Shown here piece by piece: positions 8,816-31,973 of a stretch of DNA of 32,000 bases. The position numbers and the translations under genes were made by a program. Where the stretch lies: positions 1 to 32,000 of the forward strand of contig JBHLPL010000002.1 in NCBI GenBank assembly GCA_048939465.1. Reading direction: 5' to 3'. Position 1 is the stretch's first letter; each line of letters begins with the position of its first letter. Source of the stretch: Promethearchaeota archaeon (GTDB lineage: Archaea > Asgardarchaeota > Odinarchaeia > Odinarchaeales > JBHLKK01). Below the pieces are notes generated by a model, which saw only the letters and a program-made list of their open reading frames with translations, was not told the DNA's origin and did not search any database.

Positions 8816-9556
8816 ATGTTATTTACAGACATAGAAGGGAAAAGAATCCCTCTAGTATCAATAGGAACATCCCCATTCTTTGGGGCAGGGCAATTTGGCA
8901 TAAAGGCGCTTTTTTGGAGACAGAAGTTCCTGCATAATCCGGAGGAAATGGCAAACCTAATGATGGATGCATATGATGCAGGAAGCAGAGGTGCACACAT
9001 AATACCGCTGGGGAAGATTCCAGCGGCTGCAGGAATTGTAAAAGATCAATACTCTGAGTTCGTCGTGATCGGGAGCACTCCGCCTAATAATATCATGAAA
9101 GGAATCGAAATTCTTGAAAAGATGGATGCAAGGATCATCTTTGTACATGGGCAGATTGCGGACTTGAGAAGCAAGAATAAGCTTTCCGGTTTGCTAAGCG
9201 AGATCAGAAATGCTGGAGCCGTACCTGGGATAGCCACACATGAGCCCATAGAGACGATATCATTCATCGAGAACCAAGGACTGGATTGTCCAGCAATTCT
9301 GGTTCCCTTTAACAGCAAAGGTTACGCGATGCAAAACAAACCTCGACTTGAGAGAATGATCAATAGCTCTACCAGGTTTTTCATAGGGATGAAGGTACTC
9401 GCTGCAGGAAAAATAAGACCAAAAGCAGCATTCGAATATGTTGGAAAACACGGTAATATCTCTGCCGTGACAATAGGAATAACTACAAGTCAAGAAGCAA
9501 AAGAAAGCGTGCATTTCGCCTTGAAGTGTCTGAATTCAGGATCAAGGTTAAGGTAA
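8816..9556 (+). CDS. Hypothetical protein, aldo/keto-reductase-like
   Basis: 246 aa; 'IGMKVLAAGKI' and 'AVTIGITT' resemble AKR C-terminal motifs. Confidence 0.65.
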   Translation: MLFTDIEGKRIPLVSIGTSPFFGAGQFGIKALFWRQKFLHNPEEMANLMMDAYDAGSRGAHIIPLGKIPAAAGIVKDQYSEFVVIGSTPPNNIMKGIEILEKMDARIIFVHGQIADLRSKNKLSGLLSEIRNAGAVPGIATHEPIETISFIENQGLDCPAILVPFNSKGYAMQNKPRLERMINSSTRFFIGMKVLAAGKIRPKAAFEYVGKHGNISAVTIGITTSQEAKESVHFALKCLNSGSRLR

Positions 9557-9586
9557 TTCTGTTGCATTAAGAGTGCAACACAAAAT

Positions 9587-9601
9587 GAAAAGCTTAAAAT
9601 A
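9587..9601 (+). promoter_or_regulatory. Putative BRE-TATA promoter of the rpoD operon
   Basis: GAAAAGCTTAAAATA about 57 nt upstream of the rpoD start. Confidence 0.5.
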
Positions 9602-9657
9602 TGCTTCTTGCTTCTCCTTTATCCTATCACTAAAACGATGACTGTCGGTGTACAGAA

Positions 9658-10470
9658 TTGAAGATACGGATTCTTGAAAAAGACGATCAACACATCCAGT
9701 TTTACGTAGAAGGTATTGATCCAGCTTTCGCCAACTCTTTAAGGCGAATTATGATATCCGAAGTGCCGTCTATGACAATAGACGAGGTAATGATAGTCGA
9801 GAATACGTCTGCCCTGTTTGATGAAGTACTGTCGCACAGACTAGGATTAATCCCCATTGTAACCGATTTAGAGTCGTACGTACTTCCGAGTGAATGCGCA
9901 TGCAACGGGTCTGGCTGTCCTCAATGCCAGGTCATACTGACCCTAAACAAAGAAGCAACAGAAGGCGGAATGACTGTCTACTCAGGAGACTTAGAATCGC
10001 AAGATCCTAAAGCGATTCCTGCAAGCGATAAGATACCAATAATCAGGCTGGCAAAAGGGCAACGACTGGTACTTGAAGCATATGCAAGGTTAGGAACCGG
10101 TCGAGAACATGCCAAATATCAGCCAGTATCTGGCTGTTCTTACAGGTATAAGCCGATAATTGACATAGAACTGGACAAGTGTGAGGCATGTGAAGAGTGT
10201 GTCAAGTCATGCCCGAAGAATATTCTTCGTCAAGAGAATGGAACTCTCGTGTTGCACGATGCTTTAAGCTGTACTCTGTGCAAGTCATGTGTAGAATCCT
10301 GCGAATTCGATGCAATTCATATATCGTGGGATGAATCTACATTCATATTCAATGTCGAATCTACAGGAGTCTTACCACCGAGCAAGGTTGTTAAGAAATC
10401 AACCGAAATATTGGAGAAAAAAGCAAGAGAATTCATAGAACTCGTGGGCGTAGCCAAGACGGAGAGGTGA
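9658..10470 (+). CDS. rpoD: DNA-directed RNA polymerase subunit Rpo3 (D), with ferredoxin-like Fe-S domain
   Basis: ANSLRRIMISEVPS, HRLGLIP, GTGREHAKYQP; CxxCxxCxxxCP and CxxCxxCxxxC motifs. Confidence 0.96.
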   Translation: MKIRILEKDDQHIQFYVEGIDPAFANSLRRIMISEVPSMTIDEVMIVENTSALFDEVLSHRLGLIPIVTDLESYVLPSECACNGSGCPQCQVILTLNKEATEGGMTVYSGDLESQDPKAIPASDKIPIIRLAKGQRLVLEAYARLGTGREHAKYQPVSGCSYRYKPIIDIELDKCEACEECVKSCPKNILRQENGTLVLHDALSCTLCKSCVESCEFDAIHISWDESTFIFNVESTGVLPPSKVVKKSTEILEKKAREFIELVGVAKTER

Positions 10471-18403: not shown

Positions 18404-20208
18404 TTGATAAGACAACCCATTATATCGTTCTTGGGCCACATCGATGTGGGCAAAACAAGTCTCCTAGATAAGATAAGAGGAACAGTAGTTCAGCTTCGAG
18501 AGGCAGGGGGTATAATGTAGTAGCATAGACTACTCCATGCTAGACCCAGCATATCGGAGCTAGCTTCCTGCCCACTTCCGTTATAACAGCCATAGCAAAA
18601 GATCTTCTAAATCAATTCAAGATCAAAGTTACAATACCAGGATTGCTGGTTGTTGATAGCCCTGGGCATGCAGCATTTATGAACTTGAGAAGAAGAGCCG
18701 GGAGCGTCTGTGACATCGCCATTCTTGTGATTGATGTACTGGCAGGCTTTCAGCCTCAAACACACGAGTCCGTCAACATCCTGAAGGAGAGAAATACTCC
18801 GTTCCTGGTGGCGGCAAATAAGATAGATAGGGTTCCCGGATGGAAAGACAAAGAATCAACATCGTTCTTAGAATCTGTAAAGAAACAGGAAGAGTTTGTT
18901 AGGAAGAATCTTGATCAGAAAATATACGAAATCGTTGGGGCCTTTTCAACAATAGGTTTTGAATCTGAAAGATTTGACAGAGTGGGAGATTTTACTAAGA
19001 CCATCGCCATTGTGCCTACAAGTGCAAGAACTGGAGAAGGGATTGCAGAACTCCTGATGGTAATTGCAGGACTTACCCAACAATACATGATGAAACGTTT
19101 GGAGATTTCATCTGAAGGGGGCAGAGGAACAGTTTTGGAGGTCAAGGAGGAACCGGGGCTGGGAATTACCGTTGACACTGTTATCTATGATGGAGTGATC
19201 CACAAGGGAGACACCATCGTGGTAGGGAGCTTGGGTGATCCTATTGTAACTAAGATACGGGCAGTTCTGCTGCCAAAACCCCTTGATGAGATACGCGACC
19301 CCCGCGAACGATTTGATCCTGTAAAGGAAGTTCAAGCAGCTGCAGGTATCAAGATAGCAGCACCTGCTCTTGAAGGGGCTATTGCTGGAGCCCCTTTGAT
19401 TGTCGCGAACACAGAAAAGGAGATTGAAGAAGCAAAGAACGAAATATTGAGTGAGATTGAAAAGATCAGGATATCGACAGACAAAACAGGGATAATACTT
19501 AAGGCAGACACGCTAGGTTCTTTAGAAGCTATTCTAAAATACTTCCAGGATCAAGGGATTGCAGTCAGAATAGCCGACGTTGGGGATATTTCAAAAAGAG
19601 ACATAGTTGAGGCTGAAGTCGTTAAGGAACTTGATCCGCTTTCAGCGATTGTTCTTGGATTTAATGTCAAAGTACTGCCTGATGCCAAAGAGGAATCGGT
19701 TAAACATGAAATTCCGATACTCCAAAACAGGATAATTTACCGATTGTTTGAGGAATATGACAATTGGCTATTTGAGAGGAGGGAAGAGCGAAAGAGAGAA
19801 GCATTGAAGACAGCCGTAAAACCAGGAAAGGTAAAAATCATTCCAGAATATATTTTTCGGCAAAGTAAGCCCGCGATCGTCGGTGTTGATGTTCTTAGCG
19901 GGCAAATAGTCTCTCGGGTCAACTTGATAAAAGAGGATGGGAGCAGAGTAGGAACAATTCTTCAGATACAGGACAAAGGAGAAGTAATTCCTATTGCCAA
20001 GGCGGGACAAGCTGTCGCCATTTCAATCAGGGGAGCCACCGTTGGTCGACAGATAAATGAGAATGACGTTCTATATGTCGATATGCCAGAAAGAGATGTC
20101 AGACTCTTCAAAGAACGTTTCAGAGACGAACTCTCTGTGGGTGAGTTGGAAGCTTTAGATGAATTAATCGAGATAAAGAGGAAATCAGATCCTACATGGG
20201 GTGCATAA
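18404..20208 (+). CDS. infB: Translation initiation factor aIF5B (IF-2), split gene: join(18404..18514,18544..20208), 591 aa after removing a 29-nt insert
   Basis: Exon 1 [37 protein letters not shown] joins in frame to [10 protein letters not shown]...DSPGHAAF...NKID; TTG start after GGAGGATGA. Confidence 0.95.
18515..18543 (+). other. Putative bulge-helix-bulge (BHB) intron in infB, 29 nt, phase 0
   Basis: Exon helix GGG/CCC, central helix GGUA/UGCU, bulges UAA (18513-15) and AGA (18542-44), intron stem UGUAGUAG/CUACUCCA (7 of 8 pairs). Contains in-frame TAG TAG. Confidence 0.88.
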
Positions 20209-28454: not shown

Positions 28455-28752
28455 CCTCGAGGAAACTCCGACCAAAAGGACGGAGAGGGATTAAGGAGTC
28501 GATGAATGCTATTGGGACATACGCACCAATAGATTTGAAGTCACACCTCTCTTCGATGTGGAAACAGCTAATGACGGATGAGGGTGGGCGCCATGGACTG
28601 ATAGCCACTGTATCGCCTGACGCTATATGCAGATTACTGGGTTCAGACGCTTTGGACTTGCTGCCAATCTGGCCTGTGATGCGACCAAAGCCCATTTGGG
28701 AATTAAGGTCCAGCATAGTCATAAACTCCTTCACTAAGATGGAGTATTTCAT
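28455..28752. mobile_element. Non-autonomous IS200/IS605-like mini-element E5 (~298 bp), diverged copy of E4
   Basis: Minus strand shares TACTCC, ATGACT.TGCT.GACC, AATTCCC, CATCACA, AAGAGAGGTGT and the terminal hairpin CTCTCCG.CCTTT.GG.CGGAGT with E4. Confidence 0.7.
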
Positions 28753-29378
28753 CTATCTTCGATATATCGTCCACGTCTCTCGACCTCCCCTATGCGAAGT
28801 ATAGCATCCTCCGCATCCTTGCCCAAGACCTCACGATAACCAGCCAAAACTGCTTCGAAAAACTCTTCAGCGTGTTGATAGTGAGTACTTTGTAAGGCAC
28901 GCTGCATAAGGTGGAGATCCACTCCTTTATGTTCAATTTCTGATGAGTGCTCACCCAATCCAAAATCTATGAAGTATATTTGCTTTTCAGAGGTCAAGAT
29001 CATATTTGAGGTAGTTAAATCACCATGTATAAGTCCGTTCTTATGGAGACGTCCGATTGAGCGTCCTACACAGGTACAGACTCTTTTCTGTTCTTGTCTT
29101 GTAATTTCATTAATAACATTCTTAAGCTTCTGCCCATCAATGTATTCGTAAATGATGGTGGTTTTAGGAACATCTACTTGGCATATTGCCGGAGTGGAAA
29201 CCCCAGCTTTTCTAGCACTGCTGAACATCTTGGCTTCATGAATCGTCCTGTATTGCCTGATCCTTAGATCCAGTTCAGGAATTCGATATCTCTTTGCTAC
29301 CCTGCACTTCCGTACGACAACTCTGTCGTACCACTTCTCCTTAAACAAATAAGCTTCAGCACCTTTGGCCATGAGCAA
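28749..29378 (-). CDS. bud32: KEOPS kinase Bud32 (PRPK)
   Basis: KGAEA, EA, HGDLTTSN, IDFGL, VDLH, RGRY. Confidence 0.94.
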   Translation of the reverse strand: MLMAKGAEAYLFKEKWYDRVVVRKCRVAKRYRIPELDLRIRQYRTIHEAKMFSSARKAGVSTPAICQVDVPKTTIIYEYIDGQKLKNVINEITRQEQKRVCTCVGRSIGRLHKNGLIHGDLTTSNMILTSEKQIYFIDFGLGEHSSEIEHKGVDLHLMQRALQSTHYQHAEEFFEAVLAGYREVLGKDAEDAILRIGEVERRGRYIEDR

Positions 29379-29390
29379 CTTGATCCTCCC

Positions 29391-30396
29391 CTAATCTCTC
29401 CAGACAATATCAACTTCATCGAGTCGCCATTTTGGCTTTACGCTACTATTTTTTAATTTCAAAACCTGTCCATGTTTGTACTGTAACATCCCTGTCCATG
29501 CTATCATCGCTCCATTGTCCCCAGAGAATCTGTTCGAGACCACACGAAACTTTGCATTATGCTCCTTAGCAATGGATTTAAGCATCTCCTGCAGTCTTTT
29601 GTTTGCAGCTACACCTCCCGTTAATAGAACAGCAGGCTTTTCAGTGTGTGCGAGGGCACGCTCCGTAACTTCGGTCAACATTGAAAATGCAACTTCCTGT
29701 AAGCTGAAACAAAGATCTTCGATTCTGTTCTCATGAAGTTTGTTTGTTGCAGCAGTTAGGAGACCGGAATAGGATAAGTCCATACCTTTGACAGTGTAGG
29801 GTAAATCAATGAACCGCTTGCCTTTCTTTGCTAACCTTTCTATCTTGGGGCCACCTGGATGTTTGAGTCCTGCTGAACGCGCAAAAGCATCGAGCAAATT
29901 ACCTATGGGAATATCTAGGGTTTCCCCAAACACACGATACCTACCTCCGTCATAGGCCGCGACTATGGTATTGCCACCTGAAACATACAAAGTAACCGGA
30001 TCTTCCGTATTGGAAGCAAGGCGCCCTATCTCTATATGAGCGACACAGTGATTCACACCGACGAGCGGGACTTCAGTAACTAACGCCAAAGCTCGAGCAG
30101 CAACAGCAGCAGTCCTAAGACAGGGACCTTTCAGCAAACTGTTGGCAGAGTTTTAAACCGGGTCCCTGAGAGAATGCCACGAATTCAATGTCGCTCAGGC
30201 TTATCTTTGCTTCTTCTACTGCTCTTACAATAGTTTTCTCTGCAACCCGTACATGGTGTTGGGCCGCTTCTCGAGGATGGATGCCACCCGTTTCTGGTTG
30301 ATACACGCTTTCAACACTCGTAAGGATTCTTCCTTCAGGCGTTACTATGCCAACACTGAACGTGTGGGCAGTTCCCTCAATACCCAAACCCACCAC
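29391..30396 (-). CDS. kae1: tRNA t6A N6-threonylcarbamoyltransferase Kae1/TsaD, split gene: complement(join(29391..30129,30155..30396)), 326 aa after removing a 25-nt insert
   Basis: Exon 1 GIEGTAHT...GGIHPREAAQHH...AFSQGPGL joins GPCLRT...GVNHCVAHIE...LYVSGG...ETLD...GGVAAN...DNGAMI. Confidence 0.95.
30130..30154 (-). other. Putative bulge-helix-bulge (BHB) intron in kae1, 25 nt, phase 2
   Basis: Exon helix CAGGGACC/GGUCCCUG (8 bp, perfect), central helix CGGU/GCUG, bulges UUA and AAA, intron stem AAACU/AGUUU with an 8-nt loop. Confidence 0.93.
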
Positions 30397-30463
30397 TATT
30401 AACACCTCAAGAAAGGAAGATAAATACTATGATTTAAAAAACAACTGTTTTTGGCAGTGATTT

Positions 30464-31261
30464 TCATTTTCGCAACGCTGTCACTTTCTTCATGAAGTCC
30501 TTTACCCTAACTATATCTACAGGCTCCTTAACATTATTATTTACTTTGAAGTTTGTTCCAACAATTACGCCATCCGCTAATTCCATAAATGCTTCAACAT
30601 TACTGGAATCAACACCACTACCAACCAGGATAGGAGTTTCCGGCACCGCATCTTTTACAGACTCAATATCGTCTAAATTGGGAGGTTCTCCCGTTTCCTC
30701 TCCCGTGACAATGACAGCATCTGCTAGCCCCCGATCTACTGTTTCTCGGGCTGCTCTCTCAATAGGAATCGCGGCAACAGGCAGCGCATGCTTTACATGT
30801 ATGTCCGAAAAGATGAGGACCTCAGAATTGAGGAAGGACCGATACCTGAGTGTCTTGTAGGCCGATCCCTTAATAATTCCTTGATCGGTAATATATACAC
30901 CGGTAAGGATGTTGGCTCTGATGAAACACCCACCGCAAATGGTGGCAATAGATAACGCAGCAATATTATCGTTTCTCAAAACATTAACTCCAAACGGCAG
31001 AGATGTCTGATCAGCTATCTTTGAAACGATGAAGGTCATGGCAGCTACAGTTTCTATGCCAACTTGACTCGGATAATATGGTAAATCCCCAAAATTCTCA
31101 ATAAGCAGCGCATCGACTCCACCGGACTCTAGAGCCTTGGCGTCTTCTAATGCTTGTCGTAATATGGTATTTATGTTAACTGTTCGAGGTGAGCCGGGCA
31201 ATGGCAGAAGATGAACCATCCCAATCACAGCTTTCTTCTTTCCAAAAACACTTCTCAACAT
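30464..31261 (-). CDS. BtpA/SgcQ family protein
   Basis: IGMVHLLPLPGSP, ENFGDLPY, GVNVLRND, DIHVKHA, VTGEETG, VGSGV, IVGT. Confidence 0.9.
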   Translation of the reverse strand: MLRSVFGKKKAVIGMVHLLPLPGSPRTVNINTILRQALEDAKALESGGVDALLIENFGDLPYYPSQVGIETVAAMTFIVSKIADQTSLPFGVNVLRNDNIAALSIATICGGCFIRANILTGVYITDQGIIKGSAYKTLRYRSFLNSEVLIFSDIHVKHALPVAAIPIERAARETVDRGLADAVIVTGEETGEPPNLDDIESVKDAVPETPILVGSGVDSSNVEAFMELADGVIVGTNFKVNNNVKEPVDIVRVKDFMKKVTALRK

Positions 31262-31427
31262 CACCAACCCTCCCAAGAAGTCTTCTGTGTCTAATCTGTA
31301 TTAATTCCCTTCCTAAAAGCATGAGATCTTAACGCTCTAGATAAGCAAAGAATACCTTAAAGGACGGCTCTTATGAGAGACAAAATTGCTTCTGATTGAT
31401 CAAAAAGGAGTTTTATACGAGTTTAGA

Positions 31428-31973
31428 TTAGGGGGCAGCGACATTCCTATCACACGTTGTGAAGTAGTTCTTTCCAACATGTAAGCAAAGACGAACCTTT
31501 GACAGGTCATAGACTTCTTTGAAGTAGTCTTTTGTAACGTATGCTGCAACCACCTTGCCGATCATCAGGGTATGATCTCCTGCCTCGAGACTTTTGCTAA
31601 GCTTACATTCTATGTGGGCAATACAGTCTTTGATTATTGGAGGAGATACTTTCTTAGCACTCTGAGTCTCAAGAGAGAATTCATCGAATTTGTTATGATC
31701 TCTGCCTGAAAGCGTACCGCAGCCGAGTACCTTTTTGGCAAGTTGGAACGTAGGAACGTTCACCACAAATTCTTTTGTTTCTGAGATCAATTTATGAGAG
31801 TATCTTCCAGGACGGATACTCATGGCCAATAGTGGTGGATCCACGCTAACAGGAATAATCCATGCTATAGCAAGAACGTTTGGCCTACCGTCTTTACCCC
31901 GGCAAGAAACCAAGGTCGCATTATAGGGATGCAGCAGACGAGAATACAGCTTAAGGTCCACATCGGTTTTCAT
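31428..31973 (-). CDS. Flavin reductase-like FMN-binding protein
   Basis: EFVVNVP, CGTLSGRDHNKF, IAHIECK, GDHTLMIGKVV. Confidence 0.9.
   Translation of the reverse strand: MKTDVDLKLYSRLLHPYNATLVSCRGKDGRPNVLAIAWIIPVSVDPPLLAMSIRPGRYSHKLISETKEFVVNVPTFQLAKKVLGCGTLSGRDHNKFDEFSLETQSAKKVSPPIIKDCIAHIECKLSKSLEAGDHTLMIGKVVAAYVTKDYFKEVYDLSKVRLCLHVGKNYFTTCDRNVAAP

Follow-up and report, generated by a model that had tools for sequence, protein, structure and literature searches.

The window analysed here comprises 32,000 nucleotides (nt) of contig JBHLPL010000002.1 (positions 1 to 32,000) from a Promethearchaeota archaeon of the Odinarchaeales and carries the gene kae1 (tsaD) on its minus strand. This gene is broken at GPGL|GPCLR by a 25-nt insert (30130-30154), which is very probably a bulge-helix-bulge (BHB; tRNA-type) intron in the kae1 pre-mRNA of this Odinarchaeia-related Asgard archaeon, as judged from DNA sequence and its comparison among relatives. 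Two open reading frames (ORFs), located in different frames of the ORF list, cover the gene: the first (30405..30115; 96 amino acids, aa) ends with ...GPGLKLCQQFAERSLS (also written ...AFSQGPGLKLCQQFAERSLS), while the second (30137..29391; 248 aa) begins with MLKGPCLR. The Pfam TsaD profile (PF00814; cut-off 24.8 bits) is split between the two, positions 11-61 matching exon 1 (E 4.7e-12, 46.6 bits) and positions 64-264 matching exon 2 (E 6.6e-63, 213.3 bits), and because of this split the break is taken to be a clean interruption within a single gene. The minus-strand sequence at 30121-30168, from which the initial annotation had proposed the intron, was identical on re-reading.

Exon 1 (30155..30405, minus strand) contains the N-terminal 82-83 codons plus the first two bases of a Leu codon and offers GTG starts at 30405, 30396 and 30393. 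It is followed on the same strand by the 25-nt BHB intron (30130..30154), composed of base 3 of bulge 1, the inner hairpin, the 3' strand of the central helix and bases 1-2 of bulge 2, and by exon 2 (29391..30129), which provides base 3 of the Leu codon, 245 further codons and the stop. Excision of 30130-30154 in silico, with each bulge cut after its second base, produced a single open frame containing ...AFSQGPGLGPCLR... and restored G-L-G-P, as had been proposed. The restored product carries SQGPGLGPCLR, has no residue gained or lost and shows no gap relative to 90 intron-less homologues; the Kae1 motif VNHCVAHIE is present besides the restored GPGLGPCLR. The spliced junction is predicted to read ...CCCGGTTT|AGGTCCC... 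in DNA sense, with ...FSQGPGLGPCLR as junction peptide. Kae1 would comprise 329 aa if GTG 30405 is the start and 326 aa from GTG 30396; the latter length, given in the initial annotation, is reasonable, as this GTG is located 6 nt past a Shine-Dalgarno-like GAGGTG motif. Unspliced RNA yields the 96-aa fragment only, and splicing would therefore be obligatory for Kae1 synthesis.

The minimum-energy structure computed with RNAfold for 30115-30175 is exactly of the hBHBh' form, comprising outer, central and inner helices of 8, 4 and 5 bp, a 3-nt bulge on each strand and an 8-nt loop (-18.7 kcal/mol, z = -2.75; 3 of 200 shuffled sequences fold equally well). In the outer exon-exon helix of this fold, the 5' strand CAGGGACC (30161..30168, minus strand as for all following elements) pairs with the 3' strand GGUCCCUG in exon 2 (30121..30128; codons G-P-C). 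The central helix is formed between exonic CGGU (30157..30160) and intronic GCUG (30132..30135), the latter placed by both the minimum-energy fold and the alignment, and consists of the pairs C-G, G-U, G-C and U-G. Bulge 1 (UUA, 30154..30156) holds the predicted 5' cut at 30155/30154 and bulge 2 (AAA, 30129..30131) the predicted 3' cut at 30130/30129; the third base of bulge 2 is an A that is invariant in the 19 sequences described below and completes the Leu codon YUA. The inner hairpin h' (30136..30153) is made up of the stem AAACU/AGUUU and the 8-nt loop. Archaeal EndA cleaves after the second base of each bulge. Canonical pre-tRNAs show the same strand topology as kae1: there, the 3' portion of the intron is the pairing partner of positions 32-35, and both bulges are found 3' of their respective central-helix strands. 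The geometry bears out the term "canonical" used in the initial annotation, though G-U makes up half of the central pairs.

For the distribution of the interruption, 400 genomes of the phylum were surveyed and a split was scored at TsaD profile position 62-64. It was limited to four families, kae1 being uninterrupted in about 365 other Asgard genomes. All three genomes of the present genus (family f1) carry the split, each with 25 nt, as do all four of the family of Odinarchaeum (f2, including a closed genome; 28, 30, 32 and 26 nt), all five of family f7 (14, 14, 14, 13 and 14 nt) and all five genomes with a match in family f19, which is identical to Jordarchaeia RPF2 (29, 28, 29, 29 and 29 nt). 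Two further metagenome contigs (JGI, ENA) contain inserts of 25 and 28 nt with different loops (loci L152, L153, L155). Overall, 19 kae1 inserts from 17 genomes and the two metagenome contigs interrupt the same codon, range from 13 to 32 nt and have unrelated loop sequences. The same cutting rule yields GPGLGPCLR in all of them, with the exception of metagenome contig L152 (25 nt), in which GPGLGACLR results. A length divisible by three is found only in the 30-nt insert, within which two TAA codons occur. The complete single-contig genomes G003 and G040 are among the carriers. The nearest named Kae1 proteins belong to Odinarchaeia (RPA3) and Jordarchaeia (RPF2), both with the insert, and none was found in 78 named non-carrier archaea, including Sigynarchaeum, Lokiarchaeia/Promethearchaeia, about 35 Bathyarchaeia, methanogens and others. 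Public gene calls in the carrier lineages comprise only the exon-2 ORF (224-253 aa), named Kae1/TsaD; marker-gene sets, estimates of completeness and phylogenies can all be skewed by such truncated calls.

Two further kae1 genes of the survey are broken elsewhere. One (G141:C185:6372-7311, L131) has a second break near profile position 110-137 besides the shared intron; the other (G014:C121:820-1628, L045) is without the shared intron and contains an internal TAG and TAA, with a split near position 189-201. These extra breaks represent either frameshifts or introns at other sites.

Retention of the insert, with the 96-aa and 248-aa polypeptides assembling into active Kae1, would make kae1 a split gene of the kind for which Nanoarchaeum provides precedents. 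In the present genus the insert contains a TTG three codons upstream of exon 2, which accounts for the 248-aa protein predicted by gene callers, but upstream of exon 2 no in-frame ATG, GTG or TTG is available in 14 of the 19 carriers. Exon 2 of family f19 is immediately preceded by a stop, and use of the earliest available start there would cost 17 residues or more, the invariant GPCLR among them. The break moreover falls within a conserved loop motif, and two separate polypeptides would leave unexplained both the BHB geometry maintained over inserts of 13-32 nt and the covariation of the exons at synonymous sites described below, which renders a split gene very improbable.

Covariation was assessed in the alignment of the 19 sequences with a hand-given structure and 500 shuffles. 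Standard pairs occupy 97.4 % of the helix cells vs 81.7 % after shuffling (0/500), the covariation score amounts to 0.489 vs 0.191 (0/500), and sliding of the partner strand by 1-3 columns lowers pairing to 29-61 %. Six of the 14 pairs have changed on both sides. Cells of the outer helix are paired to 96.7 % across the 19 sequences (compensatory changes at two pairs), those of the central helix to 98.7 % (two pairs changed on both sides) and those of the inner pairs to 97.3 %, the first two inner pairs covarying between lineages (GC/AU; CG/GC/AU). The alignment of relatives that had been suggested as a check on the BHB motif hence revealed strong covariation in all three helices, with six compensatory pairs.

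The outer helix is built of codons: the encoded amino acids dictate six of the eight pairs, and the other two join synonymous third positions (Gly/Gly and Gln/Pro). These third-position pairs are complementary in 16 of 17 and 15 of 17 carriers (94 % and 88 %), realized as GC, CG, UA, AU, UG and GU, whereas the same sites are paired in only 34 and 36 of 90 intron-less kae1 genes (38 % and 40 %), i.e. at chance level. Because intron-less genes pair there at chance level, the comparison shows, at the level of aligned sequences, that selection acts on the exon helix as RNA solely in genes with the insert.

A ribosome that bypasses the insert or shifts frame across it, with the hairpin as stimulator, was considered as a second way to a full-length product. 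Ribosomal bypass has a precedent in the hop on phage T4 gene 60, and a stable hairpin does lie at the frame break. In addition, the introns of cbf5 were at first mistaken for frameshift sites (PMC2738675), which was counted in favour of recoding. Yet matching take-off and landing codons are missing and the Leu codon arises only by joining of UU and A. Furthermore, constant 3-nt bulges and a constant 4-bp spacer contrast with an offset to be bridged that varies among carriers (13, 14, 25, 26, 28, 29, 30 and 32 nt), and the host lineages are rich in BHB introns of tRNA genes (PMC11291895). Translational recoding is on these grounds extremely improbable. Group I or group II introns and inteins were rejected by argument, 25 nt being far too small and the frameshift existing at the RNA level.

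Turning to the integrity of the gene, no other kae1 was detected in the genome (1.96 Mb, 152 contigs, 91 % complete, 3.8 % contamination), and none of the carrier genomes contains a second full kae1. The ratio of nonsynonymous to synonymous substitution rates (dN/dS) within the genus is 0.10-0.16 for exon 1 and 0.10 for exon 2 at dS of about 0.8-1.3; across the genomes compared it is 0.06-0.16 in both exons at dS of about 1. Judged by these ratios, both exons are under purifying selection. Logan contigs derived from mangrove and sediment metagenomes (three runs, three studies) cover 29900-30400 without an indel or an intron-less joint, although some of those spanning the insert may be the source of the metagenome-assembled genome (MAG) itself; run X15 yielded no contig for this stretch, a blank that carries no weight either way.

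A dead kae1, or 25 mis-assembled nucleotides, would find room in the incompleteness and contamination of this MAG, since a second copy could have remained unassembled. Speaking against these readings are dN/dS values near 0.1 for both exons with dS at about 1, the lack of a second full kae1 in any carrier, the unchanged insert in contigs of three runs and three studies, even if these possibly include the MAG's source, and the same-site inserts in 19 sequences including the complete genomes G003 and G040. A pseudogene or assembly artefact is therefore hardly credible. The initial annotation had named the absence of the insert from DNA and an intact kae1 paralog as findings that would speak against the intron: the insert was recovered in contigs of three studies, and no paralog was found in the 91 %-complete genome. 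Its judgement that splicing is far likelier than pseudogenisation gains support from the single copy, dN/dS, the same-site inserts and covariation.

Several observations weigh against a BHB intron in kae1. Among the sequencing runs listed as containing this DNA none was an RNA run, so that the spliced junction and any circular intron are predictions. G-U accounts for two of the four central pairs in this genome, and Odinarchaeum has three G-U pairs in its central helix, which the minimum-energy fold leaves open. One mismatch in the outer helix occurs in 4 of 17 genomes and in both metagenome contigs, in G031 either the second bulge measures 2 nt or one central pair is mismatched, and G139 is almost devoid of the inner stem. 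The carriers are related, so that the counts above do not represent independent events and p-values overstate independence; despite this kinship, several different pair types must have arisen separately. Finally, the relaxed BHB pattern is frequent by chance, with 3197 matches in this genome. Since such patterns are common, the fold alone is insufficient, and the significance of the kae1 case is derived from the exact frame repair and the comparative data. The latter make a strong case, with a site conserved across classes and clean covariation of the helices.

According to the proposed mechanism, the transcript would fold such that the exon codons Q-G-P (CAGGGACC) pair with the exon codons G-P-C (GGUCCCUG) and the next four exon bases CGGU with intronic GCUG, the two 3-nt bulges being exposed on opposite strands 4 bp apart. 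An (alpha-beta)2-type EndA would cut each bulge after the second base, and RtcB would ligate the exons to GGU UU|A GGU CCC (G-L-G-P). Translation of the joined mRNA would then give Kae1 in full length, which serves KEOPS as its catalytic subunit in t6A37 synthesis. We infer that cleavage and ligation actually take place and that these enzymes are responsible.

Two EndA paralogues are encoded in the genome (contig C90, region 9,100-9,700, and contig C139, region 31,000-31,900). One is alpha-like, matching the catalytic subunits of the heterotetrameric enzymes of Aeropyrum, Sulfolobus and Pyrobaculum (E 1e-44 to 1e-32; Aeropyrum and Sulfolobus alone, 1e-44 to 1e-38); the second is a more remote match that reaches structural beta subunits as well. 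Asgard EndA is reported to be an (alpha-beta)2 enzyme with an L1 loop linked to broad substrate range (PMC5829648), a type that the predicted paralogue pair fits. Two RtcB genes were identified (C31 and C78). The one on C31 (2961-5708, minus strand) forms a single open frame of 973 aa, in which Pfam RtcB positions 1-57 and 45-426 are matched about 1.4 kb apart; from its sequence this gene looks like an RNA ligase with an intein insertion. ARAGORN recognized only 15 tRNA genes in 1.96 Mb, 12 of them intron-bearing, in agreement with the intron-rich tRNA genes of Asgard lineages (PMC11291895). Most tRNA genes of the genome are probably too interrupted for recognition.

Directly downstream of kae1, bud32 (28749..29378, minus strand) encodes the intact KEOPS kinase with Pfam matches to Pkinase, RIO1 and Kdo. 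Pcc1, Cgi121 and Sua5 are likewise intact, all on other contigs. The initial annotation was thus right in regarding the remaining KEOPS genes as intact but not in placing them in one operon, only bud32 adjoining kae1.

A further interruption was found 12 kb from kae1 in the gene for aIF5B (18405..20208, plus strand), where a 29-nt insert (18515-18543) with in-frame TAG TAG separates EAGGI|TQHIG. It adopts a BHB fold whose exon helix comprises 3 bp (GGG/CCC) and whose central helix is GGUA/UGCU; the bulges read UAA and AGA, and seven of eight pairs are formed in the inner stem. A split at this profile position is confined to the present genus (G000-G002), the aIF5B gene of Odinarchaeum being uninterrupted. 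In-frame TAA, TAG or TGA also occur in the aIF5B matches of G011 and G021 (f7), G022 and G032 (f15), G012 (f8) and G033 (f9), where they may reflect further mini-introns at other positions. The cbf5 gene of this genome (C69:39279-40235, minus strand, about 9 kb beyond the window) is uninterrupted.

The whole genome was also scanned for a BHB pattern with a 6-bp outer helix, combined with a test of whether excision merges two ORFs. This strict scan returned 96 candidates, kae1 alone being convincing; top candidates such as pheS/pheT and the start of a cysteine desulfurase gene were rejected as adjacent separate genes. A relaxed scan with a 3-bp outer helix gave 624 unsorted candidates. Both scans missed the aIF5B intron with its short exon 1 and 3-bp exon helix; they are hence insensitive, and a blank result says little.

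With respect to origin, the insertion site looks predisposed, the codons of QGPG-L-GPC forming an inverted repeat by themselves. Because six of the eight outer pairs are fixed by the amino acids, any insert at this position gains its exon helix at once, and the repeat may render the site prone to gain or retention of BHB introns. Here a protein motif would act as a ready-made BHB landing site. The kae1 intron is judged to be old, as it is common to Odinarchaeia-type and Jordarchaeia-type families. In a quick Kae1 tree the carriers form two clades, f7 with f19 and f1 with f2, the latter beside Sigyn- and Lokiarchaea (SH-like approximate likelihood ratio test, SH-aLRT, 94). Deeper forks are open in this tree, such that one gain with loss and two gains are both possible. 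The introns of 13-14 nt are near the lower size limit and would offer simple substrates for the requirements of Asgard EndA. A more far-reaching and rather unlikely proposal places the kae1 intron in a broader group of ancient mini-introns, spliced by EndA and RtcB, in core genes for translation and RNA modification of Odin- and Jordarchaeia, with the aIF5B insert as a second member; these introns would be kept, not as junk, but because obligatory splicing ties the synthesis of such factors to tRNA-splicing capacity. If true, a regulatory layer of mRNA splicing would exist in the closest prokaryotic relatives of eukaryotes.

Among known systems, the introns in cbf5 of Crenarchaeota (Desulfurococcales and Sulfolobales; 16-44 bp) come closest (Watanabe 2002, Yokobori 2009, PMC2738675). 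Pre-mRNA splicing was at that time described as unconfirmed for genes other than cbf5 (PMC2738675), and a 2023 review lists two archaeal genes with endonuclease-dependent mRNA splicing, cbf5 and HVO_1309, with more expected (PMC10485636). The view of the initial annotation that mRNA BHB introns are known mainly from crenarchaeal cbf5 accords with this literature, which adds HVO_1309 only. In kae1 as in cbf5, a short BHB-type intron lies in the coding sequence of an RNA-modification enzyme, within a conserved or catalytic motif, and is kept in a clade, absent from relatives and routinely mis-annotated; an (alpha-beta)2 endonuclease and exon ligation are proposed for kae1 as well. The two differ in the gene and in the phylum (Asgard instead of Thermoproteota), in the strict hBHBh' motif of kae1 in contrast to the cbf5 motifs described as relaxed, and in the size of the introns, which in relatives of the present kae1 are as short as 13-14 nt. 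Furthermore, splicing of cbf5 was shown experimentally, whereas that of kae1 is predicted from sequence.

The HVO_1309 mRNA of Haloferax volcanii is cut by EndA, and the spliced product was detected by RNA-seq (Schwarz 2020, PMC7714728; PMC10485636). Both this mRNA and, as predicted, that of kae1 are substrates of the archaeal splicing endonuclease, but the HVO_1309 host is a euryarchaeon with an alpha'2 enzyme and its element, going by published accounts, lacks conservation across classes. The HVO_1309 element is also said to lie in the 5' region and not to split a conserved coding motif.

Archaeal pre-tRNA BHB introns, including non-canonical ones of Asgard archaea (PMC11291895; bioRxiv 10.64898/2026.10.13.758758), share with the kae1 intron the hBHBh' geometry, the size range, the enzymes and the host lineages. 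Unlike these, the kae1 intron resides in an mRNA, its exon helix is built of codons and is thereby under protein as well as RNA constraints, and the reading frame must survive its removal. Looking beyond archaea, a non-spliceosomal removal of a short (26-nt), frame-shifting mRNA intron is known from IRE1/RtcB splicing of XBP1/HAC1 mRNA, with cuts in two small RNA loops and ligation by RtcB. The kae1 case resembles it in the short frame-shifting intron and the proposed ligase, and differs from it in that IRE1 is an unrelated endonuclease recognizing another RNA motif in stress-induced regulation, for which kae1 provides no evidence.

In the literature searched, with subscription journals outside its coverage, no earlier description of kae1 BHB introns, Asgard mRNA introns or an Odinarchaeum kae1 intron was found. 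Compared with the known BHB introns of mRNAs, the mechanism is the same, in a new gene and a new phylum: kae1 would be the third archaeal gene with such an intron, an essential and universal one, and the first mRNA case in Asgard archaea, the closest known relatives of eukaryotes, from which only tRNA introns have been reported.
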